Shown: positions 22,848 through 32,000 of the stretch, one piece after another | How positions within the stretch are numbered: the first letter of the stretch is position 1 | Layout: every line of letters begins with the position of its first letter | Source of the DNA: Roseithermus sacchariphilus | GTDB lineage: Bacteria; Bacteroidota; Rhodothermia; Rhodothermales; MEBIC09517 | Length of the DNA: 32,000 nt | Direction of reading: 5' to 3' | Assembly (NCBI GenBank): GCA_003285105.1 | Contig: CP030158.1 | Coordinates: 3,674,449 to 3,706,448 of the forward strand | Translations under genes and position numbers: made by a program | The notes under the pieces: model-generated | What the model was told of the DNA's origin: nothing | Seen by the model: the letters and a program-made list of their open reading frames with translations, nothing else | Database searches by the model: none

Positions 22848-23285
22848 ATGATGCCCGAGCTTCTGGCCCAGGTGCCCACGCTGGCCCTGATCGCGCTCGT
22901 CTTCTACCTGGCCGCCGGCCTCCGGCGCGAACGTCGCCGCCAGGCTGAGCGACCGACCGCCGGCCCGGACGAGGCCCTGCTCAAACGCCTGGATCAGCTC
23001 TCCACGCGCGTCGACGAGCTCAGCGAGCAGGCGTGGCGCCTGGAGGAGCGCCTGGCCGAGGCGATGGAGACGGCCCGGCACAACCACGAACGCATCGCCA
23101 AACACCGGACGGCGCTGGAGCGCTTCGGGATGTTCCTGGAGGACGAACTCAACCGCATCGACCGTGGCCTGGCCGACGTGCAGGCCCGCGTGAACGCGCT
23201 GACCCTGCCCGATGCGCTCCGCCACGCGGCGGAGGACGAGGAGCTGGCCGAGTATGAGATCGCCAGCCTCGACGCGGCGGCGTGA
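22848..23285 (+). CDS. Hypothetical membrane-anchored coiled-coil protein
   Basis: 145-aa ORF. One N-terminal TM helix (VPTLALIALVFYLAAGL) is followed by a charged helical region (LLKRLDQLSTRVDELSEQAWRLEERLAEAMETARHNHERIAKHRTALERF). I recognise no family. Its codon composition is consistent with the core genome. Confidence 0.5.
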   Translation: MMPELLAQVPTLALIALVFYLAAGLRRERRRQAERPTAGPDEALLKRLDQLSTRVDELSEQAWRLEERLAEAMETARHNHERIAKHRTALERFGMFLEDELNRIDRGLADVQARVNALTLPDALRHAAEDEELAEYEIASLDAAA

Positions 23286-23505
23286 ACCGGAGCGGGCCGG
23301 CGTTGTAGAGGGCTGGTTCCTACCGGGTCTGGCAGTCCCTACAGTGATCCCGCGGAGGGAGGCCAGGGCCTGCCATCCCCGTTGTCCTCAGATGCCTTCG
23401 CATGCCGGGATCACCTGATTCCGCCTTATCGCAACAAAAAAGGCCACGAAAGGAACCCCGAAGAGGCAGCCAGCACCGGGCCACATCCTCTCTTACCCTC
23501 CCGGC

Positions 23506-24354
23506 TCAACGAATCATGAAGGAGACCGCCACCGGACTCCCGTTCTGCATCAAGGGCGGATCAGACGTCCCCGAGCCGCCGAACTCGAAGACCCCGATCT
23601 GGCCACTGTCTTCATGAAGCATGGCATAGAGCGTCGTGCCCGAAGCAACACCCGTTTCCAGCCCCACCGGAATGTTCCGGGTCTTCCCATGGCGTATGAA
23701 CGCTTTGCCCAGGATCACCGAAGGATCAGGCGTTCCGTTCTGCGTGGCCGGGTGAATAACGACCCAGGCATCCGAAGTTACCAGCACTTCGGACAACAAC
23801 ACCACCTCTCCCACTACGTCGCCTACCGTTAGCCCTGGAGCGCCGGGTACCTCTTCCGAGCCTCCATCGAGAGGTGGAACGGCCGGCGGAATCGGCTCCC
23901 TCTCATAATCGAGCTGCTCGAGATCGCCGATCAGGGCTTCCATCTCAGCAATCTCTCGGCGCTGAGCCAGAATGATGTCATCGGCAAGCCGGCGCACTCG
24001 TGGATCCGATATCTTTGCGCGTTCGCTCGTCAGGATCGCGATGGAATGGTGGGGAATCATAGCCTTCATCCAGTCAACGTCATCGACCGTATCCTGGCTC
24101 CGCGCAAGAAACAGCGCCCCCACCAGCACCAGCGCGCTTCCCGCGAAGACAGCAAGGTTCTTTTTGCGATCGGCATACATTTCTCGCATAAATCCGAGCA
24201 TGACTATCGCCATTGCGGATCCCATGTAAAGAGCCATCCAGAAGCGCGTCTCGCTCCACCAGACATGACTAAAACGATAGGCAGTGGAATACATCAAGAT
24301 GAACATCACCACGGTAGAGGTGGCGATCATGGCTATGAATCGCTTATAGGACAT
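23506..24354 (-). CDS. Membrane protein: 3 TM helices + DUF305-like helical segment + C-terminal beta-rich domain (DUF7282-like by eye)
   Basis: ORF 23506..24369; the likely ATG is at 24354 (MSYKRFIAMIATSTVVMFILMY...). The DUF305-type motif is WMKAMIPHHSIAILTSERAKISDPRVRRLADDIILAQRREIAEMEALI. The C-terminal ~108 aa (nt 23509-23832) read AWVVIHPATQNGTPDPSVILGKAFIRHGKTRNIPVGLETGVASGTTLYAMLHEDSGQIGVFEFGGSGTSDPPLMQNGSPVAVSF. Confidence 0.72.
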   Translation of the reverse strand: MSYKRFIAMIATSTVVMFILMYSTAYRFSHVWWSETRFWMALYMGSAMAIVMLGFMREMYADRKKNLAVFAGSALVLVGALFLARSQDTVDDVDWMKAMIPHHSIAILTSERAKISDPRVRRLADDIILAQRREIAEMEALIGDLEQLDYEREPIPPAVPPLDGGSEEVPGAPGLTVGDVVGEVVLLSEVLVTSDAWVVIHPATQNGTPDPSVILGKAFIRHGKTRNIPVGLETGVASGTTLYAMLHEDSGQIGVFEFGGSGTSDPPLMQNGSPVAVSFMIR

Positions 24355-24684
24355 AGGTCGTTCACGCAAAGATATGATCGAAGTACGGGTTACATCTCAA
24401 TACGAGATCGACCAGAAAAAAGGATAACAGGATGGCTTCACCGCGTAAAGAACACACACTGCGAAGCCTGTTCTCCCCTCACGACTTCCGGCCTCTATCG
24501 GCATGAACTGACACAAACGAAATTACAAGGATAGAACCTTAAACTCCTTTCAGGTCACGCAACTGTTACGGCATCTTCAAAAGGATGCGTGGTATGGTAT
24601 GACACCTCCTTGCTCATGCTGCCTCCAGGCAGAACCTGTCAGGATAGGCCTCAAGGCGCCAGATAGCAGGCGTCGTCGCCATCC

Positions 24685-26124
24685 TTAACGATATGGAACT
24701 ACGACCGGCAGGCGAACCACGAAAAGGCTACCCCGAGACGGACCTTCGCTCCAGCCCTCTACGGTGCCACCATACATCTGCGTGATGGCCTGGACGATGG
24801 CCAGGCCCAGCCCACTACCGTGCCGTGCCTGCACCTCCGGCGTATCGGCCCGGTAAAACCGATCAAAGAGATGAGATTGCTGCTGGGCGTCGAATCCAAT
24901 CCCGGTATCCATCACCTCGATACGGGCCTCATTGCCGTCGTGCACCACTCTAACATGAATTCTTCCTCCAACCGGGGTATACTTGATGGCGTTGTCCAAC
25001 AGGTTGTCGACCACCTCTCCGATACGTCCACGATCGGCCTGAACGAAGACGCCTGGCGTCACGTCTATAGCCAGGTCAAGCCCCTCGCGAGCAGCCCGTC
25101 GCTGCATTCGACGAACATGTTCACTGACGACGTCTCCCAGGTCGATCGATTCGCGGGGTAATTCGTGTAATTGATCGACACGGGCGAGTTGCAACAACCC
25201 ACGAATCGTCCCCGTCATTTCTTCCACTTCTTCCATCATGGTCCGAAGCGTATCCCGGTACCCCTCCGGGGTGCGCTCGCGCCGCAGGGCAATCTCGATG
25301 CTGTTGCTCAGGGTAGTGAGTGGGGTTAGAAGTTCGTGTGCGGCATTGTCGGTGAAGCGTCGTTCCCGCTCGAAGGAGGCCTCGATGCGAGCAATCAAGG
25401 CGTTGAACGTCTCAGCCAGTTCGGTCAGTTCATCACGGACCTGAAAGCGGGTGGGCAAGCGGGCACTCAAGTTGGTCACCCGGATCTCATTGGCGGCTTC
25501 GGTAAGCGCCGCGACTGGTTGCAGTGCCCGGCGTGCCAGGAGGGACCCGCCCCAGATGGCCAGCAGGACACTCAGCACAATCCCCACAATCATTGCCAGA
25601 CGCAGCCTGTACAATTCCTGGTGTAGCGACCATTCGAACCCGGTCACCTCCAACCATCCCTGCAGGGCGTCCTCAGCGCTGAAGAGGGGCGTATACATCG
25701 AGCGCGCCGGCTTTCCTTCCCAGACCTGACTGACGGAGGCGGCCACGGTGTCTCCGGGAATGCGCACCTTGAGCGGGCTGTGTTCTGCAAAATTCGGGCT
25801 CTTGTAGAGCACAAGCCCGTCTGGAGTGAGCAGCCGCACGTAGGTACCAAAGACGCCATCGGTTTCATAGGCCACAGAGCGCAGTTCATCCAGCGAGCTA
25901 AAGGCAGGGCTACCCCCCGCAAACTGGACGTAAGGCATGAGTTGTCGCGTCTCGTGGCTCAGGTGCCTATCAAAATCGCGATGCAGACTGGCATGGAAGA
26001 AGAGATAACAGAACAGGGCAAACAGGCTCAACAGAATGAGGAGCGTGAGCCCATACCACATAGTCAGGCGCGTGGAGATACGCAAGTGCATAGAAGCAGG
26101 CATCGGGTATTGACGCTGCATCAC
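24685..26124 (-). CDS. Sensor histidine kinase, CusS/CopS-like heavy-metal sensor type
   Basis: 479-aa ORF. Two TM helices flank a ~120-aa periplasmic domain. HAMP region: LLARRALQPVAALTEAANEIRV...LTELAETFNALIARIE. H-box: RRFTDNAAHELLTPLT. HATPase motifs: DNLLDNAIKYTP, DTGIGF, GSGLGLAIV. The start is GTG 26124 or ATG 26121, overlapping the response-regulator stop by 4 nt or 1 nt. Confidence 0.88.
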   Translation of the reverse strand: MMQRQYPMPASMHLRISTRLTMWYGLTLLILLSLFALFCYLFFHASLHRDFDRHLSHETRQLMPYVQFAGGSPAFSSLDELRSVAYETDGVFGTYVRLLTPDGLVLYKSPNFAEHSPLKVRIPGDTVAASVSQVWEGKPARSMYTPLFSAEDALQGWLEVTGFEWSLHQELYRLRLAMIVGIVLSVLLAIWGGSLLARRALQPVAALTEAANEIRVTNLSARLPTRFQVRDELTELAETFNALIARIEASFERERRFTDNAAHELLTPLTTLSNSIEIALRRERTPEGYRDTLRTMMEEVEEMTGTIRGLLQLARVDQLHELPRESIDLGDVVSEHVRRMQRRAAREGLDLAIDVTPGVFVQADRGRIGEVVDNLLDNAIKYTPVGGRIHVRVVHDGNEARIEVMDTGIGFDAQQQSHLFDRFYRADTPEVQARHGSGLGLAIVQAITQMYGGTVEGWSEGPSRGSLFVVRLPVVVPYR

Positions 26125-26843
26125 GTGGCGTCATGAAGCAGATCCGGGGCCCCCTCTACCACCAGACGATACCCGACGCCCCTGACCGTTTCGATACGAA
26201 CGGCATGGGCCTCAGGGGTACCCGGCTGGACGTCCGCCAGTTTCTGCCTGAGTCCGAAGATGGTCACATCCATCACGTTGTCGGTCACACAAAACGGATC
26301 CCCCCAGACACGCTCCGCCAGCACCGTGCGCGAGATAACCTCGTCTGGATGGCGCATGAAATCTTCGAGTAAGGCAAATTCCTTGGGGCGAAGGTCCAAC
26401 CGGGCACCGTCGAAGGTGGCTTGCCGACGTCTGGTATTCACCTCGAGTAGACCCAGTTGCAGCACCTCCTGCTGCGTTGCCAGCGGGGGACGCCGCAGGA
26501 GAGCCCGGAGCCGAGCCAGCAGTTCTTCGAATTTAAAGGGCTTGGGCAAGTAATCGTCGGCACCGGCATCGAGTCCTGACACTCTATGCTCTACGTCGCT
26601 CAGCGCCGTGAGCATCAAGATCGGCATTTCCCGACCGGCGGCTCGCAAGTTCTCGACGACGGTTTTCCCATCCCGACGAGGAAGACGCCAGTCTACGATC
26701 AGCACATCGTAGGCGTTGGCCAGAGCCCTCAATTCTCCCTCTTCCCCATCTCCCGCCACATCGACGGTGTACCCTTCTTCCTCCAGACCAGTCTGGAGAG
26801 ACCTGGCCAGTCGGACTTCATCTTCGATGAGCAACAGCCACAT
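26121..26843 (-). CDS. OmpR/PhoB-family response regulator, CusR/CopR-like
   Basis: 240-aa ORF: MWLLLIEDEVRLARSLQTGLEEEGYTVDVAGDGEEG...YDVLIVDWRLPRRDG...PILMLTALSDVEHRVSGLDAGADDYLPKPFKFEELLARLRALLRR. The winged-helix output domain reads LRPKEFALLEDFMRHPDEVISRTVLAERVWG...TVRGVGYRL. Confidence 0.9.
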   Translation of the reverse strand: MWLLLIEDEVRLARSLQTGLEEEGYTVDVAGDGEEGELRALANAYDVLIVDWRLPRRDGKTVVENLRAAGREMPILMLTALSDVEHRVSGLDAGADDYLPKPFKFEELLARLRALLRRPPLATQQEVLQLGLLEVNTRRRQATFDGARLDLRPKEFALLEDFMRHPDEVISRTVLAERVWGDPFCVTDNVMDVTIFGLRQKLADVQPGTPEAHAVRIETVRGVGYRLVVEGAPDLLHDAT

Positions 26844-26899
26844 GGACAGAGCAGAAGCGATTGAAGTTGTAGTGCGAAGTGTCTACCCGGTGACCACAC

Positions 26900-26931
26900 A
26901 AAGTTTCGCACCTTAATAAAGTTTAAGCACC
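26900..26931. promoter_or_regulatory. Imperfect direct repeat AAAGTTTCGCACC / AAAGTTTAAGCACC enclosing the dyad CTTAA-N6-TTAAG (26912-26927); candidate autoregulatory site upstream of the response-regulator gene
   Basis: Read directly. It lies 57-88 nt upstream of the response-regulator ATG (26843, minus strand). TTAA cores start at 26913 and 26923, a 10-bp spacing. The functional role is inferred. Confidence 0.35.
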
Positions 26932-26993
26932 CCGATGAACGCCGTGGCTCCCCAGAAACACCCTGTCGATCTGAGCAAAACATTCAGAACGGA

Positions 26994-27021
26994 CTTAACG
27001 GATTTTAAGGAGCCCTTAAGC
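26994..27021. promoter_or_regulatory. Three helically phased TTAA(C/G) boxes (starts 26995, 27005, 27016), including the dyad CTTAA-N6-TTAAG and CCTTAAGC; candidate OmpR-family response-regulator binding site
   Basis: Read directly: aCTTAACggattTTAAGgagccCTTAAGCtagc. OmpR/PhoB-family regulators bind direct repeats spaced by about one helical turn, which is established. Binding by this regulator is inference. Confidence 0.35.
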
Positions 27022-27348
27022 TAGCATTCAGGCGTCCGTTCCGGTCTTGTGAGCCGAAGAAGGGATTCGGTTGATTCCCGCCCGTCACAGAGACATCCTT
27101 GCAACCCATGCAAAACCGCATGACCCACCATGACGTGGTTCATCATTGCAATGACATTATGGGTGGTGTTCCTGCTCGTTTGCTAGATCGTGCTCGACGC
27201 TGGCCTGCTTCCATCACGTCGGCCTGATGCAGACGCTGACGGGAGGACAGGCACCAGCAACACCACGACTCCAACGATGCAACCTCCAGCTCCACCACGC
27301 TAACGACGGGTTTAAATGATACCACTAACCATCCGAATGAGGTATTCC

Positions 27349-28092
27349 ATGACTACCAGACCATCGTCTACCACGAGGCAGGCAGGGGCATGGTTGATGG
27401 CCACGTTGCTGATGCTATGCGTCGGCACACGTCCGGCAGTCGCCCAGCACCAGATCCATCACCCAGACCGGTCCGCCGCTGAACAGGCCGATACGACCCA
27501 CGGCATGATGAGCCTGAGGCAGGGGGGCATGATGCAGGACCCGATGACAGGCATGATGCCGCAGCACATGCAGATGATGCAGCTTCATGTGCAAATGACG
27601 CTGGATATCATGCAGGATCCGCTACGCCGATCGACCTTGATCGTCTACGTGTTACCGACTCTGCAAGAGCCGCTCGCCCTGACAGACGAGCAGGTGAACG
27701 AACTCAAGCAACTGACACAGCAGTTCAAAAAGCAGACAATGGCGCACCAGGAGCAGATGAAGCAGGCAACTGCACAGCTCAAGGAGATCCTGGCCCCGGG
27801 CGACGCCGCGCCGGAGCGGGTCCGGGAACAGCTTGAAGAAACCGCCCGGCACCGTGCCCGGATGCAGGCCCTTGCCTACGAGACTGCCGTGAAGATGAAG
27901 GGCGTGCTCACCGCCGAGCAGCGGGCGGCGCTCGCCGAGATGAAACCCATGCAATTGCACCACCACATGATGAGGAACATGACCATGATGGAAATGATGC
28001 AGGCCATGCAGCCCGGTATGATGTCCTGTGGGATGATGCAGGGCGGTATGATGGGGATGAAGAAGAATACAGCCGGCTCCGGAGCCGGCTGA
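27349..28092 (+). CDS. Periplasmic Spy/CpxP/ZraP-like (LTXXQ) protein with Met/His-rich N- and C-terminal tracts; putative copper-binding chaperone
   Basis: ORF 27316..28092; the likely ATG is at 27349, preceded by GAGG (MTTRPSSTTRQAGAWLMATLLMLCVGTRPAVA|QHQ signal peptide). Two LTXXQ motifs are present (LALTDEQVNELKQL, GVLTAEQRAALAEM) in a helical core. The flanks are HGMMSLRQGGMMQDPMTGMMPQHMQMMQLHVQM and MQLHHHMMRNMTMMEMMQAMQPGMMSCGMMQGGMMGM. Confidence 0.75.
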   Translation: MTTRPSSTTRQAGAWLMATLLMLCVGTRPAVAQHQIHHPDRSAAEQADTTHGMMSLRQGGMMQDPMTGMMPQHMQMMQLHVQMTLDIMQDPLRRSTLIVYVLPTLQEPLALTDEQVNELKQLTQQFKKQTMAHQEQMKQATAQLKEILAPGDAAPERVREQLEETARHRARMQALAYETAVKMKGVLTAEQRAALAEMKPMQLHHHMMRNMTMMEMMQAMQPGMMSCGMMQGGMMGMKKNTAGSGAG

Positions 28093-28130
28093 AGACATCC
28101 CCAGATCTCGTCCTTAAGCAGGCGGGTCGC

Positions 28131-28163
28131 GCCATACTAAAGCCATACTAAAGCCATACTAAA
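28131..28163. repeat. Perfect tandem repeat, 3 x 11 bp (GCCATACTAAA)
   Basis: Read directly: copies at 28131-28141, 28142-28152 and 28153-28163. They lie in the 98-bp spacer between the Spy-like gene stop (28092) and the SHOCT gene start (28191). A second copy of the octamer CCTTAAGC sits 12 nt upstream at 28112-28119. Confidence 0.95.
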
Positions 28164-28190
28164 AAGGAATCAGAAATACGAAGCAGAATC

Positions 28191-28418
28191 ATGTTCGACG
28201 AATATCATAACATGTGGGGCATGCACTGGGGATGGTGGGTCTTCTGGATCGCCTTCATCCTCGTTGTCGTGATGCTGTACTGGCGTGGCCGGACGGAGCC
28301 CACGACCTCCACCCGGGAAACGCCCCTGGAGATGCTCCAGCGGCGCTATGCGGCCGGAGAGATCACAACCGAAGAGTATGAGGAACGCAAGAAGCGCCTG
28401 GAGCGCGACCGGCTTTAA
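28191..28418 (+). CDS. SHOCT-domain small membrane protein
   Basis: 75-aa ORF. It has one Trp-rich TM helix (WGWWVFWIAFILVVVMLYW) and a C-terminal SHOCT-type motif, LEMLQRRYAAGEITTEEYEERKKRLE. Confidence 0.7.
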   Translation: MFDEYHNMWGMHWGWWVFWIAFILVVVMLYWRGRTEPTTSTRETPLEMLQRRYAAGEITTEEYEERKKRLERDRL

Positions 28419-28471
28419 CCTTTTTAGAAGCTACCCAGACTCACCCATCCTCTTTCGTACCCGACCGGCAC

Positions 28472-29548
28472 ATGATTCCTCTGCCCGAGTGGGCGCCTAA
28501 CGTCCACCCCCTCATCGTCCATTTCCCCATCGCGCTGCTGGCAACGGCCGCGCTCGTGGACCTTTTCTCGCTCTTTACCCGCAAGTGGCAGGGCACGCGC
28601 ATTGCGGCTGCGGTGCTCTACGCACTCGGTGCGGTGGGCACGCTGGCGGCCTACCTCTCCGGGCAGGATGCCGCCGACGGGCTGAATCTTCCGGCCACGG
28701 TCATCCCGCATGTGACCGACCATGCCGACTGGGCCGAACGCACCCTCTGGTATTTCGGGATCTATGCCGTGGTGCGTCTCTTCGTGCTCTGGTTTGAGCT
28801 CAAGGGCAGGCGCTGGACGCAGGGATGGATGCGCGTGTTGCTCTTTCTCGTCGGTGCCGGCGGCTACTACCTGGTGATGCAAACCGGCGACCACGGGGCA
28901 AAGCTCGTCTACGCCTACGGCGCCGGCGTGCAGCCGATCATGGATCAAATAACGAACCAGCCGGCCCGACGCGAGCCGGTTGCGCCCGGCCAGGTCGCAC
29001 GCGTGCAGGTCCAGGAAGATGGCTCCTGGTACCTGGTTGTCGGCGCGGGTGCGCGCCAGGTGCATCCGCAAGACCTGCGCTTCGTGCTGGGCGGCTTCGA
29101 AGACCTGCTCGTCGAGGCGGCCGAGACAGACACGGCCCTCACCGTGCAGCTTCAAGGAGGTCCCGTGCTGTTTACTGCCGGGGGGCCCATCGGCAGCGTG
29201 CAGGCCGAGGCTACACTAAACCTCGCGTTGTTCGACGGCACCCTGCGCCTCGTGCATCACGTGCAGGATGCACAGAATTATGATTTTCTGGAAGTTGCCA
29301 GCGGCCGAATGCGACAGGGCCGCGTACAGAGTGGCAGTGTTGAAATCTTCGATGACAAGCCCTTCCAAGCCCAGGATTGGATCAACCTTCAAGCCGTCAG
29401 CGACGGTACGCACTTCCGGGGATATGCCGCTGGCGAAATGCTCACGCACGGCCATGGAAACGTCCCACGGCCAGGTGCCGTGGGCCTCTACCTCGACGGT
29501 ACTGGCACGGTGCTCTTGCGGCGCCTGGCGGCCTCCTCGCTACGATAA
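28472..29548 (+). CDS. DUF2231-type 4-TM membrane protein fused to an unassigned ~190-aa beta-rich domain
   Basis: 358-aa ORF. The N-terminus, NVHPLIVHFPIALLATAALVDLF, matches the DUF2231 signature (HP.lVHFPIal), and three further TM helices end near aa 138. The C-terminal domain (nt ~28979-29545) contains WYLVVG...FEDLLVEA...LRLVHHVQDAQNYDFLEV...GSVEIFDDKPFQAQDWINLQAVSDGTHFRGYAAGEMLTHGHG...GAVGLYLDGTGTVLLRRL. By eye this resembles a LamG/DUF1080-like jelly-roll, but the call is weak. Confidence 0.68.
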   Translation: MIPLPEWAPNVHPLIVHFPIALLATAALVDLFSLFTRKWQGTRIAAAVLYALGAVGTLAAYLSGQDAADGLNLPATVIPHVTDHADWAERTLWYFGIYAVVRLFVLWFELKGRRWTQGWMRVLLFLVGAGGYYLVMQTGDHGAKLVYAYGAGVQPIMDQITNQPARREPVAPGQVARVQVQEDGSWYLVVGAGARQVHPQDLRFVLGGFEDLLVEAAETDTALTVQLQGGPVLFTAGGPIGSVQAEATLNLALFDGTLRLVHHVQDAQNYDFLEVASGRMRQGRVQSGSVEIFDDKPFQAQDWINLQAVSDGTHFRGYAAGEMLTHGHGNVPRPGAVGLYLDGTGTVLLRRLAASSLR

Positions 29549-29576
29549 CCCGAACGTTCCACGCCCTCCTGATTCC

Positions 29577-30086
29577 ATGATCGCCACTCGCCTTCTCGCT
29601 GCCACGTTACTCCTCTGCTTACCTGGTCTGGCCGCCTGCACCGCTGATGAGCCACCCGTTGCCATGCCCGACCCGCAAGTGGCTCCCGCCCGCGCGAATG
29701 ATGCTCATGCGGCCGTTGAAACGGTGCTCGAACGCCAGGAACAGGCCATCCGGGAAGCCGACATGGCGGCGCTCGACGCGCTCTGGTCCGGCAGCGAAGG
29801 CGTCTACGTCTTCGAGCAAGGCGGGGTGGACAGTTCCTGGGCTGCCTACCGGGATCACCATCTCGGGCCGGAGCTTGAGGCACTCGAAGACCTCGACTTC
29901 CGGCACGAGGACGTCCGCATCCGCGCCAGCGGCGACCTGGCCGTGGCAACGGGGCGCTACGTCCTGACAGCCCACCACGACGGGCAGGACATCGAGAGCC
30001 GGGGCGTCTTCACCACCGCCCTGGAGCGCGAGGCGGGCACCTGGAAGATCGTCCACTCGCACCTGAGCCGCCGTCCGCGCCGGTAG
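29577..30086 (+). CDS. SnoaL/DUF4440-like (NTF2-fold) lipoprotein
   Basis: ORF 29268..30086 overlaps the previous gene. An in-frame ATG at 29577 gives MIATRLLAATLLLCLPGLAAC (lipobox LAA|C). The mature part, AVETVLERQEQAIREADMAALDALWSGSEGVYVFEQGG...GDLAVATGRYVLTAHHDGQDIESRGVFTTALEREAGTWKIVHSHLS, is the typical NTF2-like/DUF4440 pattern. Confidence 0.65.
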   Translation: MIATRLLAATLLLCLPGLAACTADEPPVAMPDPQVAPARANDAHAAVETVLERQEQAIREADMAALDALWSGSEGVYVFEQGGVDSSWAAYRDHHLGPELEALEDLDFRHEDVRIRASGDLAVATGRYVLTAHHDGQDIESRGVFTTALEREAGTWKIVHSHLSRRPRR

Positions 30087-30100
30087 CCGTTGAAAAAAAT

Positions 30101-30136
30101 ACAGGCGTAGACCGATGGAAAGTCTGCGCCGCCTGT
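30101..30136. terminator. Stem-loop (ACAGGCG-TAGAC...GTCTG-bulge-CGCCTGT) between the SnoaL-like gene and copA, with an A7 tract on its left
   Basis: Read directly. 30101-30107 pairs with 30130-30136, and 30108-30112 pairs with 30122-30126 (one G-U pair), leaving a 3-nt bulge and a 9-nt loop. A7 lies at 30093-30099 and only a weak T-run (ctgttt) is on the right. The U-tract geometry therefore fits minus-strand termination better than plus-strand termination, so the role is unclear. Confidence 0.3.
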
Positions 30137-30170
30137 CTGTTTACCTGACCCGATTGTTTTCCAACTTGCT

Positions 30171-32000
30171 ATGCCCATGGATCGCCGCACGTTCATCCGT
30201 TCCTCTGCCGCGCTGGGCCTGCTCGCCGGCATGCAGTCCCTCGCTCCTGCCTGGGCCCGCAGCACACCCACCAATCCCATCCGCTCGCCAGCCCTGGAGC
30301 CGACCCGCCGCGCCGGACGCCTGGTGGAATACGACCTCACCATCGACCGCACACCGTTAACCTTCGGCGGCAAAACGGGCCGCGCCGTGACGATCAACGG
30401 CACCGTACCGGGCCCACTCCTTCGATTCACCGAGGGCGACGAGGCTATCATCCGTGTACATAATCGGCTGCATGAAGACACGTCGATCCACTGGCACGGC
30501 ATATTACTCCCCAATGCGATGGACGGAGTGCCCGGAGTCAACTTCCCCGGCATCAAAGCGCGCTCCACGTTCGAGTACCGCTTTCCCATTCAGCAGTATG
30601 GGACGTACTGGTACCACAGCCACTCTGCCTTTCAGGAACAACTCGGCCATTACGGCCCGCTCGTGATCGACCCTGCCGGAGGCGATCCCTATACTTATGA
30701 CCGTGAATATGTCGTCGTACTCTCAGACTGGACATTCGAAGATCCCCACGACGTACTGGACAACCTCAAAAATCGTCCAAATTACTACAACTTTCAGCGA
30801 CAGACACTCTTCGGTCTTCTGCGCGGAGAAGATATGCGACTCCAGGACCGGCTTGCCTGGAGTCGCATGCGCATGGATCCCACAGACATTTCTGACATCA
30901 CCGGAGCCACCTACACCTATCTCATGAACGGCCAGGCTCCAGACCCAGGCTGGTTCGGGCGGTTCCAGCCCGGGGAGCGCGTCCATCTTCGCTTTATCAA
31001 CGCCAGCGCGGGCACCTTCTACGACGTACGTATCCCCGGTCTACCGCTCACGGTCGTCCAGGCCAGCGGGCAACACATCGAGCCGGTCGTGGTCGATGAG
31101 TTTCGCATTGGGATCGCCGAGACGTACGATGTGATCGTCGAGCCCAAGGATCAGGCCTACACAGTCTTTGCCGAGTCGATGGACCGCTCGGGCTATGCCC
31201 GCGGCACACTCGCGCCACGCCCTGGTATGACCGCCCCGGTGCCATCCCGCCGGAAGCGCCCGCTTTTGACGATGATGGACATGGGAATGGCGCACGGCGG
31301 CTCCGGGATGGACCACGCCATGATGAAGCAGGGGGAAGTGCCAGTGCATCACGGGAGCAGGAACCACGGTGCGATGGAGAAACGCGCAAGGGACGCCTCC
31401 TCCGACACCACGGCGGCTATGCATGGCCATTCAATGCACGATCCGCACGCCGGACACGGGATGACCGGCATGGCCGACATGCCAGGCGCTGCCCCCACGA
31501 GGCTGCGCCCTCCCGGCACGCTCCCCGAACCGGTACCTCACGGCTCCGACGGCCATGGCCCGGCCAACGCCATGGCACCGGACGTCACGCGCAGCCGACT
31601 TCACGAGCCCGGAGTGGGCCTGGAGGACGTGCCGCACCGCGTACTCGTCTACACGGACCTGCGTGCGCTTCATCCAGAGCCTCGTCGCGCCCCCGACCGC
31701 GAAATCGAGCTCCACCTGACAGGCAACATGGAGCGCTACATGTGGTCAATCAACGGCAAGACGTACGCGGAAGACCCACTCATCCCGATGACGCTGGGCG
31801 AGCGCCTCCGGCTCACAATGGTCAACGACACCATGATGAACCACCCGATGCACCTACACGGCATGTGGATGGAGCTTGAGAACGGCCATGGCGAACGCAT
31901 CCCCCGGGTCCACACGGTCATCGTCAAGCCGGCCGAGCGGCTTTCGGTGCTCATCGAGGTCGACGCGCTCGGCCCGTGGGCCTTCCATTGCCACGTGCTC
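30171..32000 (+). CDS. copA: Multicopper oxidase CopA/PcoA (copper resistance protein A), Tat-exported; continues beyond the right window edge
   Basis: Not in the supplied ORF track because it is edge-truncated. My translation from ATG 30171 is open for all 610 codons. The twin-arginine signal is MPMDRRTFIRSSAALGLLAG. Copper-site motifs: SIHWHGILLP (HWHG at 30489-30500), YGTYWYHSHS, HPMHLHGMWM, WAFHCHVL. There is an internal Met/His-rich insert. Confidence 0.92.
   Translation, partial: MPMDRRTFIRSSAALGLLAGMQSLAPAWARSTPTNPIRSPALEPTRRAGRLVEYDLTIDRTPLTFGGKTGRAVTINGTVPGPLLRFTEGDEAIIRVHNRLHEDTSIHWHGILLPNAMDGVPGVNFPGIKARSTFEYRFPIQQYGTYWYHSHSAFQEQLGHYGPLVIDPAGGDPYTYDREYVVVLSDWTFEDPHDVLDNLKNRPNYYNFQRQTLFGLLRGEDMRLQDRLAWSRMRMDPTDISDITGATYTYLMNGQAPDPGWFGRFQPGERVHLRFINASAGTFYDVRIPGLPLTVVQASGQHIEPVVVDEFRIGIAETYDVIVEPKDQAYTVFAESMDRSGYARGTLAPRPGMTAPVPSRRKRPLLTMMDMGMAHGGSGMDHAMMKQGEVPVHHGSRNHGAMEKRARDASSDTTAAMHGHSMHDPHAGHGMTGMADMPGAAPTRLRPPGTLPEPVPHGSDGHGPANAMAPDVTRSRLHEPGVGLEDVPHRVLVYTDLRALHPEPRRAPDREIELHLTGNMERYMWSINGKTYAEDPLIPMTLGERLRLTMVNDTMMNHPMHLHGMWMELENGHGERIPRVHTVIVKPAERLSVLIEVDALGPWAFHCHVL
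31272..31481 (+). other. Met/His-rich insert of CopA
   Basis: MMDMGMAHGGSGMDHAMMKQGEVPVHHGSRNHGAMEKRARDASSDTTAAMHGHSMHDPHAGHGMTGMADM. Methionine-rich loops are a known feature of CopA/PcoA/CueO-type periplasmic copper oxidases. Confidence 0.8.

Follow-up and report, generated by a model that had tools for sequence, protein, structure and literature searches.

A DUF2231/beta-sandwich fusion and an NTF2-like lipoprotein recur beside copper genes and are candidate accessory parts of a copper-resistance island in Roseithermus sacchariphilus

Periplasmic copper handling is well understood in a few Proteobacteria (CopC/CopD, CusF, PcoE, CueO), and many other phyla, to our knowledge, do not carry those parts. 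Here we analyzed a stretch of 32,000 nucleotides (nt) of the Roseithermus sacchariphilus genome (contig CP030158.1, positions 3,674,449 to 3,706,448 of the forward strand; "the window" means this whole stretch) that contains a copper-resistance island. The closest described systems are cop of Pseudomonas syringae and pco of E. coli, in which CopA/CopB (PcoA/PcoB) are under the control of CopRS/CusRS. As in these systems, the island has a divergent two-component system, apparently of the heavy-metal type, a multicopper oxidase exported by the twin-arginine translocation (Tat) pathway and followed by the outer-membrane protein CopB, and Met/His-rich periplasmic proteins. In contrast to them, it has no CopC, CopD, PcoE or CusF, and carries instead an LTXXQ protein, a SHOCT protein, a DUF2231 fusion, a SnoaL-type lipoprotein, a DUF302 protein and a second, small oxidase. 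The system as such is of a known kind and contains uncharacterized, widely conserved parts; this work deals with three of them, encoded by adjacent genes on the + strand (positions are those of the window):

28191-28418, + strand: small single-pass membrane protein with a C-terminal SHOCT domain, 75 amino acids (aa) (open reading frame and PF09851)
28472-29548, + strand: DUF2231/beta-sandwich fusion protein, 358 aa (open reading frame and PF09990)
28472-28951, + strand: DUF2231 membrane domain of the fusion, residues 1-160 (PF09990 and predicted models)
28979-29548, + strand: beta-sandwich domain of the fusion, residues 170-358, divergent concanavalin A-like fold (AlphaFold2 and Foldseek)
29577-30086, + strand: NTF2-like (SnoaL_3/DUF4440) lipoprotein, 169 aa (open reading frame and PF13474/PF14534)

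A first-pass annotation, made from the letters of the window alone, had described these genes as a tightly spaced, same-strand set encoding three envelope proteins outside the canonical cop/pco/cus families. The coordinates of the open reading frames give gaps of 53 and 28 nt, and the envelope location is borne out by a single-pass SHOCT protein, a four-helix DUF2231 domain and a SnoaL protein with a lipobox. The assignments to SHOCT, DUF2231 and SnoaL_3/DUF4440 all score above the curated Pfam cut-offs, the cited motifs (NVHPLIVHFPIALL, LRLVHHVQD and THGHG) are all present in the sequence, and the Trp-rich transmembrane helix that had been ascribed to the SHOCT protein reads WGMHWGWWVFW. The annotation was also right in that none of the three belongs to a canonical cop/pco/cus family of Pfam or NCBIfam: with E values of up to 0.1 admitted in both collections, no match of the three proteins to CopC, CopD, PcoE, CusF, CopG/DUF411, CopM/DUF305 or YcnI/DUF1775 was obtained. 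Canonical periplasmic copper families were found instead in neighbor genes, or as fusion partners in relatives of the three proteins.

The three genes very probably belong to copper homeostasis. We give about even chances to a more specific reading, in which they would encode accessory envelope parts of the copper-resistance island, the fusion capturing copper and handing it over with the SnoaL protein as its partner. The first of these claims was approached through the genomic context. Eighty loci were retrieved, and the 39 that carry a full or split fusion were analyzed together with the window (40 loci in all); the open reading frames of the loci were clustered, and the recurrent clusters were named by Pfam. 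In 33 of the 40, at least one recurrent copper neighbor lies within 8 kb of the fusion. These neighbors are a P1B-ATPase (17 loci), a CusB-type adaptor (14), a multicopper oxidase (14), a CusA-type resistance-nodulation-division (RND) pump (11), a CopRS-like pair (9), an outer-membrane factor (8) and CopB (6), and the copper-linked loci span Rhodothermales, Balneolales, Cytophagales and Calditrichia among others. Since the ATPases next to the fusion carry either a CPC motif with an N-terminal CxxC domain or a CPH motif, they are copper pumps, and this copper-exporting ATPase, not the CopA oxidase, is the commonest partner of the fusion. In Rhodothermales the stop codon of the ATPase gene lies 0-75 nt from the fusion start or overlaps it, in a conserved chromosomal context. 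Rhodocaloribacter litoris shows the order regulator pair, LTXXQ-like gene, two SHOCT genes, DUF411 (CopG-like) gene, fusion, SnoaL gene and P-type ATPase gene. For the SHOCT protein, 16 kb were retrieved around each of 20 homologs, and copper genes were present in 13 of these stretches. The first-pass annotation had proposed non-canonical copper accessories from the position of the genes in the window; the linkage to metal genes elsewhere is strong, and lends support to that proposal.

Such a linkage could also be trivial if the genes were passengers that ride on a mobile island and have no functional tie to copper. The G+C content of the island (0.53-0.65) is indeed below that of its flanks (0.65-0.75), and islands of this kind vary in gene content. 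Against this, copper genes accompany these genes again and again, in several orders and differing arrangements, and the Rhodothermales context is a conserved chromosomal one with a housekeeping ATPase, and we regard the passenger explanation as extremely unlikely.

The fusion and SnoaL genes form the conserved core of the set. Matches to the fusion and to a SnoaL profile were compared in 301 sampled genomes of the phylum, and a strong SnoaL match adjoins the fusion at 34 of the 58 places that encode one, with the match ends mostly 14-79 nt apart and in at least ten genera. Among the retrieved loci, a SnoaL gene of the same subfamily lies 3' of the fusion in nine. SHOCT homologs are present in 42 of the 301 genomes, and the position of their gene varies: it follows the LTXXQ gene (in the window and in loci L001, L118, L119 and L121), precedes the small oxidase, lies beside DUF302, or directly precedes the fusion. 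Its neighbors are more often an LTXXQ protein, DUF302 or a small oxidase than the fusion. It is the fusion-SnoaL adjacency, set against these varying positions, that makes the pair the core; the SHOCT gene is a looser, mobile member of copper islands with no fixed place relative to the fusion.

The membrane domain of the fusion matches PF09990 with 52.6 bits (cut-off 26.4) over residues 10-155, and in the predicted models (pLDDT 87 and 89.8) it consists of four long helices, at residues 8-35, 40-70, 78-110 and 118-149. Across 41 diverse DUF2231 domains, residues H12, P13, H17, F18, P19, H84, G142 and V146 are invariant; the window's protein shows the family signature, HPxxVHFPI with a third His where helix 3 begins, and H12, H17 and H84 are likewise invariant in the membrane domain of 42 aligned fusions. 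The conserved histidines are flanked by Pro and by Asp/Glu (HPxxVHFP, TDHADW). The loop charges of the bundle put its N and C termini outside, and the three histidines are predicted to lie at the periplasmic face of the membrane. A Foldseek search with the membrane domain alone returned no significant relative, only generic four-helix bundles (best E 0.23), and the fold therefore offers no functional clue. The same genome encodes a second DUF2231 protein outside the copper loci (525 aa; C1:472537-475914, L141 484-2061, - strand), in which the order is DUF2231, a CxxCH cytochrome-like segment and leucine-rich repeats.

AlphaFold2 modeled the whole fusion (pLDDT 87, pTM 0.84) as four helices, a disordered linker and a beta-sandwich, and the pTM suggests that bundle and sandwich pack as one unit. 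The C-terminal domain had been called jelly-roll-like in the first-pass annotation, a description that agrees with the model: its nearest PDB neighbors are CBM66 and the GH16 glucanases/galectins. The top Foldseek match is CBM66 of the Bacillus subtilis levanase (PDB 4AZZ/4B1M; for 4b1m, E 2.5e-10 and TM-score 0.75), and a profile of the whole family, compared with solved structures, gave a weak match to the CBM66 levanase (E 0.028) and nothing further. No Pfam family matches the window's own sandwich. PF06439 (3-keto-disaccharide hydrolase/DUF1080) was weakly matched by 7 of 42 relatives, with a best E of 3e-05 that is below cut-offs, and not by the window protein; 9 of the 42 matched Laminin_G_3. 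The invariant C-terminal residues of the 42 aligned proteins are W186, H263, H314, R316, Y318, H326, G327 and H328, together with a closing Gly pattern, and the conserved aromatics of the sandwich are W186, Y270, F272, Y318 and a near-invariant Trp at alignment position 188, which is Leu in the window.

The full architecture of the fusion is found in more than 255 proteins of 340-400 aa. Rhodothermales and Balneolales account for most of them, with further ones in Cytophagales, Calditrichia, Vicinamibacterales and a Litorilinea. Searched alone against 1.84 billion representatives, the sandwich returned 356 clusters, nearly all of them DUF2231 fusions or fragments; the sandwich thus defines a small, dedicated family of its own, for which Pfam has no model. 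The first-pass annotation had left the side of the membrane on which this domain lies to a topology prediction, and the outcome is periplasmic, because both termini of the bundle lie outside by the loop charges (N-out/C-out). Five Cytophagales loci encode bundle and sandwich in two separate, adjoining genes; there the sandwich has its own lipoprotein signal and a His-rich linker, which confirms the periplasmic location independently. Other stand-alone sandwiches also bear lipoprotein signals, with long His/Asp/Glu/Met tracts. Among 87 relatives, 20 have at least three histidines in the linker (up to eleven), some of them as EADHEHAPGEEH repeats.

The fold of the sandwich raises the question of whether it binds a glycan (peptidoglycan, lipopolysaccharide or exopolysaccharide), in which case the set would repair or remodel an envelope damaged by copper and would not bind the metal. 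The best structural matches and the weak sequence matches are to concanavalin-like domains that bind or cleave carbohydrates, and the sandwich has the conserved aromatics listed above. What sets the fusion apart from CBM66 and PF06439 is its four invariant histidines, its partnership with DUF2231 and its lack of a carbohydrate context: the histidines and the His/Asp/Glu-rich linkers mark metal rather than sugar sites, the sandwich is nearly always tied to DUF2231, and no recurrent glycan-metabolism genes lie nearby in the analyzed fusion loci. Envelope maintenance of this kind is thus, in our judgment, very unlikely.

The main alternative starts from the membrane domain. The fusion could be a redox module whose bundle holds a His-ligated heme b, or some other redox cofactor, and connects the quinone pool with the periplasmic domain by electron transfer; it would turn Cu(II) into Cu(I) or the reverse, or else feed or drain the oxidases, and the SnoaL protein would be an associated enzyme. 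The three histidines that are invariant over all DUF2231 domains sit on two helices, a CxxCH cytochrome-like domain is joined to DUF2231 in another protein of the same genome, and a DUF411/CopG gene, which encodes a copper redox protein, lies directly upstream of the fusion in R. litoris. Moreover, genes for monoheme cytochrome c, MtrC/MtrF-like or CcmF-like proteins adjoin the fusion in a minority of loci (L006, L007, L008, L032 and L035). Most loci, however, have no cytochrome genes. The histidines appear to lie at or above the membrane surface with Pro and Asp/Glu neighbors, unlike those of a buried bis-His heme pocket; the sandwich is not DOMON-like; and no cytochrome b-type carrier (b561, CybB, YedZ) was matched in Pfam, or in Foldseek with an E value better than 0.23. 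We hold this reading to be possible and, on balance, doubtful, and note that it is compatible with copper binding rather than exclusive of it.

A more novel reading is in our view unlikely: the fusion would be a new kind of membrane-anchored periplasmic copper oxidoreductase, in which electrons move between the quinone pool and a copper site of the sandwich through a cofactor held by the three histidines, and it would oxidize Cu(I) or reduce Cu(II) at the exit of the P1B-ATPase, with the SnoaL protein as an obligatory subunit. Such an enzyme would be a convergent bacterial counterpart of the eukaryotic cytochrome b561-DOMON (CYBDOM) proteins, which the fusion resembles in outline: a His-bearing helical bundle, an extracytoplasmic beta-sandwich and a setting of metal redox. 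It differs from them in having four helices instead of six, three conserved histidines instead of four heme ligands, and a concanavalin-like instead of a DOMON sandwich, and no structural match links the two.

The partner of the fusion is a lipoprotein with a lipobox, LAAC, at residues 18-21. Its assignment to the SnoaL/DUF4440 fold in the first-pass annotation stands, as both profiles score above their gathering thresholds (PF13474, 61.4 bits with a cut-off of 22; PF14534, 52.4 bits with a cut-off of 25.2). The gene call of the sequence collection (P0125) is 140 aa long, begins 29 codons downstream and drops the lipoprotein signal; the 169-aa start is likelier, because close homologs keep the full form with the signal peptide. 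Identity with the SnoaL polyketide cyclase, or SgcJ/EcaC, was considered and rejected, as TIGR02246 scores 20.5 bits, short of its cut-off of 33.95. The subfamily has E80, Y91, H95, A122 and W156 as invariant and P98, E99, H162 and S164 as near-invariant residues, with the motif WAxYRDHHLGPEL and a C-terminal HxS, and E80, Y91, H95, H162 and S164 make up a motif of its own, apart from the enzymatic NTF2 families. The closest solved structure is 3BB9, a "putative orphan protein" (E 4e-26) of the same SnoaL_3 subfamily, in which the Glu, Tyr, His-His, Trp and HxS positions are kept and align with those of the window's lipoprotein. In other genomes, one member of the subfamily is fused to a YcnI-like DUF1775 domain and another to MDHSGMDHS repeats, and two tandem copies lie amid oxidase, cytochrome c, DUF305 and YHS proteins, at a place with no DUF2231 gene; the subfamily thus has ties to copper that do not depend on the fusion. 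In the analyzed loci no fusion of DUF2231 to an NTF2-like domain was seen, and a long open frame around a weak SnoaL match (G300) turned out to encode an ordinary lipoprotein of a different subfamily, away from copper genes.

The SHOCT protein has a short His/Met/Trp N-terminal tail, one transmembrane helix, a basic juxtamembrane stretch and the SHOCT domain (PF09851, 40.2 bits with a cut-off of 27, residues 44-70), whose profile describes a 28-residue C-terminal helical hairpin. The motif H..GMHW(G/I)WW at the N terminus is common to the homologs. Because the only hydrophobic segment, at residues 11-29, has its Lys and Arg residues downstream exclusively, the positive-inside rule predicts a periplasmic tail and a cytoplasmic SHOCT domain. 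The paper that defined SHOCT proposed no function and did not confirm oligomerization (PMC3581485), and silver induced a SHOCT membrane protein in Haloferax alexandrinus (PMC10694973).

How could these parts work together? From the genes, folds, topology logic, conserved residues and neighborhoods we infer the copper binding, the direction of hand-over and the regulation in the following scheme. The adjacent CusRS/CopRS-like regulator would switch the three genes on together with the island. In the fusion, the four-helix DUF2231 bundle would display its cluster of three histidines (H12, H17 and H84) at the periplasmic surface, and the fused sandwich would bear a patch of four (H263, H314, H326 and H328). 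Copper released by the P1B-ATPase or entering the periplasm could then be captured on the periplasmic side of the inner membrane and either held or delivered to CopA (the oxidase), CopB or Cus. The SnoaL protein would be a dedicated periplasmic partner, offering a second pocket lined by His, Glu and Tyr or acting as an enzyme on the same substrate, and the SHOCT protein might be a small membrane helper, general to copper islands, with its His/Met tail outside and its hairpin inside.

Copper capture and hand-over is favored because invariant histidines are predicted on the sandwich and at the periplasmic membrane surface, because they have Pro and acidic neighbors and appear not to be buried, because relatives add His-rich linkers, and because the fusion gene is coupled to a copper exporter. 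In its proposed role only, the fusion resembles CusF and CopC: it is a periplasmic protein whose gene lies beside those of copper exporters and which might accept the metal that they release, and its gene is tightly coupled to that of the P1B-ATPase in Rhodothermales. Unlike them, it is membrane-anchored and has no relation to either in sequence or fold. CusF is a small barrel of the oligonucleotide/oligosaccharide-binding type and CopC a cupredoxin-like sandwich; the fusion has a concanavalin-like fold, and a putative His site rather than a Met/Trp site.

Several observations weigh against this reading. The linker of the window's own fusion has no His at all, and the nearest fold relatives of the sandwich are carbohydrate binders. 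Metal binding is something we infer from the conserved histidines and the His-rich linkers alone, and the cytochrome neighbors and the second, CxxCH-fused DUF2231 protein are easier to reconcile with electron transfer than with simple metal binding. In 7 of the 40 loci there is no copper gene nearby, although two of these are contigs of 2 and 6 kb, and the sampled genomes are interrelated, so that counts such as the 33 of 40 overstate the independent support. Finally, our literature search found no functional study or experiment on DUF2231, on SHOCT with copper, or on DUF4440 with copper resistance.

The genes and sites around the set are the following:

24685-26124, - strand: histidine kinase (best match TIGR01386, 239 bits, below the curated cut-off)
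26121-26843, - strand: OmpR-type regulator (best match TIGR01387, 202 bits, below the curated cut-off)
26912-26927 and 26994-27009: two CTTAA-N6-TTAAG dyads, candidate operator, in the regulator-divergent intergenic region
27014-27021: CCTTAAGC box beside the second dyad
27316-28092, + strand: LTXXQ (Spy/CpxP-like) protein, Met/His-rich, periplasmic, first gene of the array (weak PF07813 and PF13801, below cut-off)
28112-28119: CCTTAAGC box in the 98-nt gap ahead of the SHOCT gene
28131-28163: perfect tandem repeat of 3 x 11 bp, GCCATACTAAA, ahead of the SHOCT gene (tandem score 66)
30171-32000, + strand: CopA/PcoA-type multicopper oxidase with a Tat signal and three Cu-oxidase domains, extending past the end of the window (TIGR01480, 744 bits)

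The array on the + strand comprises eight genes, for the LTXXQ protein, the SHOCT protein, the DUF2231 fusion, the SnoaL protein, CopA, CopB, DUF302 and the second multicopper oxidase (476 aa), the last three of which lie beyond the window and were seen in L082; the housekeeping genes hemF and hemH come after it. The match of the downstream copA gene to TIGR01480 excludes its being a P-type ATPase. The array is divergent from the regulator/kinase pair, and a gene for a membrane-anchored DUF305 fusion comes next after that pair. Elsewhere in the genome there is a second copper locus (C1:2157658-2171189), which encodes a CPH-type ATPase, DUF411, CusA, CusB and a CPC-type ATPase and has no DUF2231, SnoaL or SHOCT genes.

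The CTTAA-N6-TTAAG dyad has only these two copies in the whole 4.8-Mb genome, and the same dyad stands between the regulator gene and its divergent neighbor in L121, L118 and L119 (Rhodocaloribacter litoris and two other Rhodothermales). The CCTTAAGC octamer occurs four times in the genome, twice at this locus. Together, the dyads and the adjoining box (26912-27021) are the probable operator of the island. The 11-mer GCCATACTAAA also has four genomic copies, three of them in this array, the only tandem one, and a single one elsewhere; the 98-nt gap ahead of the SHOCT gene may thus hold a second, internal regulated promoter for the three genes. In the closest relative, L001, the gap before the SHOCT gene is only about 34 nt and has no repeat. 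A scan for intrinsic terminators found no terminator-like site on the + strand between the genes, although the scans for sigma-70 promoters and intrinsic terminators performed no better on this sequence than on shuffled sequence; this phylum uses promoter types other than the sigma-70 consensus that was scanned. Rfam revealed no RNA element within 23000-32000. Between the dyads and the LTXXQ gene lies a hydrophobic mini-open reading frame of 18 codons (27130-27186, + strand; it starts MTWFIIAM), and in R. litoris a called gene of 48 aa (L083 2828-2974) with a near-identical start occupies the same position.

The regulator/kinase pair flanks the fusion in eight related loci as well as in the window, and this bears on another explanation, in which the DUF2231 protein would handle no metal and would report copper to the neighboring kinase or modulate it. 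In L019, L020, L023 and L025, it is the fusion gene that comes first on the side divergent from the regulator pair. Furthermore, in at least eight loci of Ignavibacteria/Bacteroidota (L055, L059-L062 and L066-L068), short DUF2231-only genes lie directly before a regulator and a kinase gene on the same strand, with 20-200 nt between the matches. Yet the fusion of Rhodothermales is coupled to the ATPase with no regulator close by, adjacency to a regulator is equally expected of a regulated target, and the kinase has a periplasmic sensor region of its own. A role as sensor accessory therefore strikes us as quite unlikely.

Other genes near the fusion and its relatives deserve mention. In a Bacteroidetes metagenome-assembled genome and in Caldithrix abyssi (L006 5130-11205 and L008 4458-6179), the fusion is flanked by an MtrC/MtrF-like multiheme cytochrome gene and a CcmF-like gene, and the multiheme cytochrome ends in a type IX secretion tail. 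Small Cys-rich proteins of about 70 aa with the pattern CPxC...CCVFCS recur in related copper loci, often beside a MerR-type regulator (L005 3311-3532, L007 10058-10267, L015 7495-7758 and L030 10274-10486; in the own genome near C1:1286594), and in Cytophagales a module resembling them is fused to a methyltransferase. Also in Cytophagales (L034 11773-14058, L037 and L041), multicopper oxidases of 760-790 aa have a C-terminal extension that is a putative CopB-type outer-membrane domain.

The DUF2231-sandwich/NTF2-like pair is a widespread, unnamed companion of copper pumps and oxidases in Rhodothermales, Balneolales, some Bacteroidota and Calditrichia. The three proteins are small and easily expressed, which makes the proposal directly testable. 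If they do bind or transform copper, they would supply, in these groups, the missing link from the inner-membrane exporter to the periplasmic oxidase or RND pump, add a new copper-binding fold, and provide the first functional anchor for DUF2231, a large family of unknown function.

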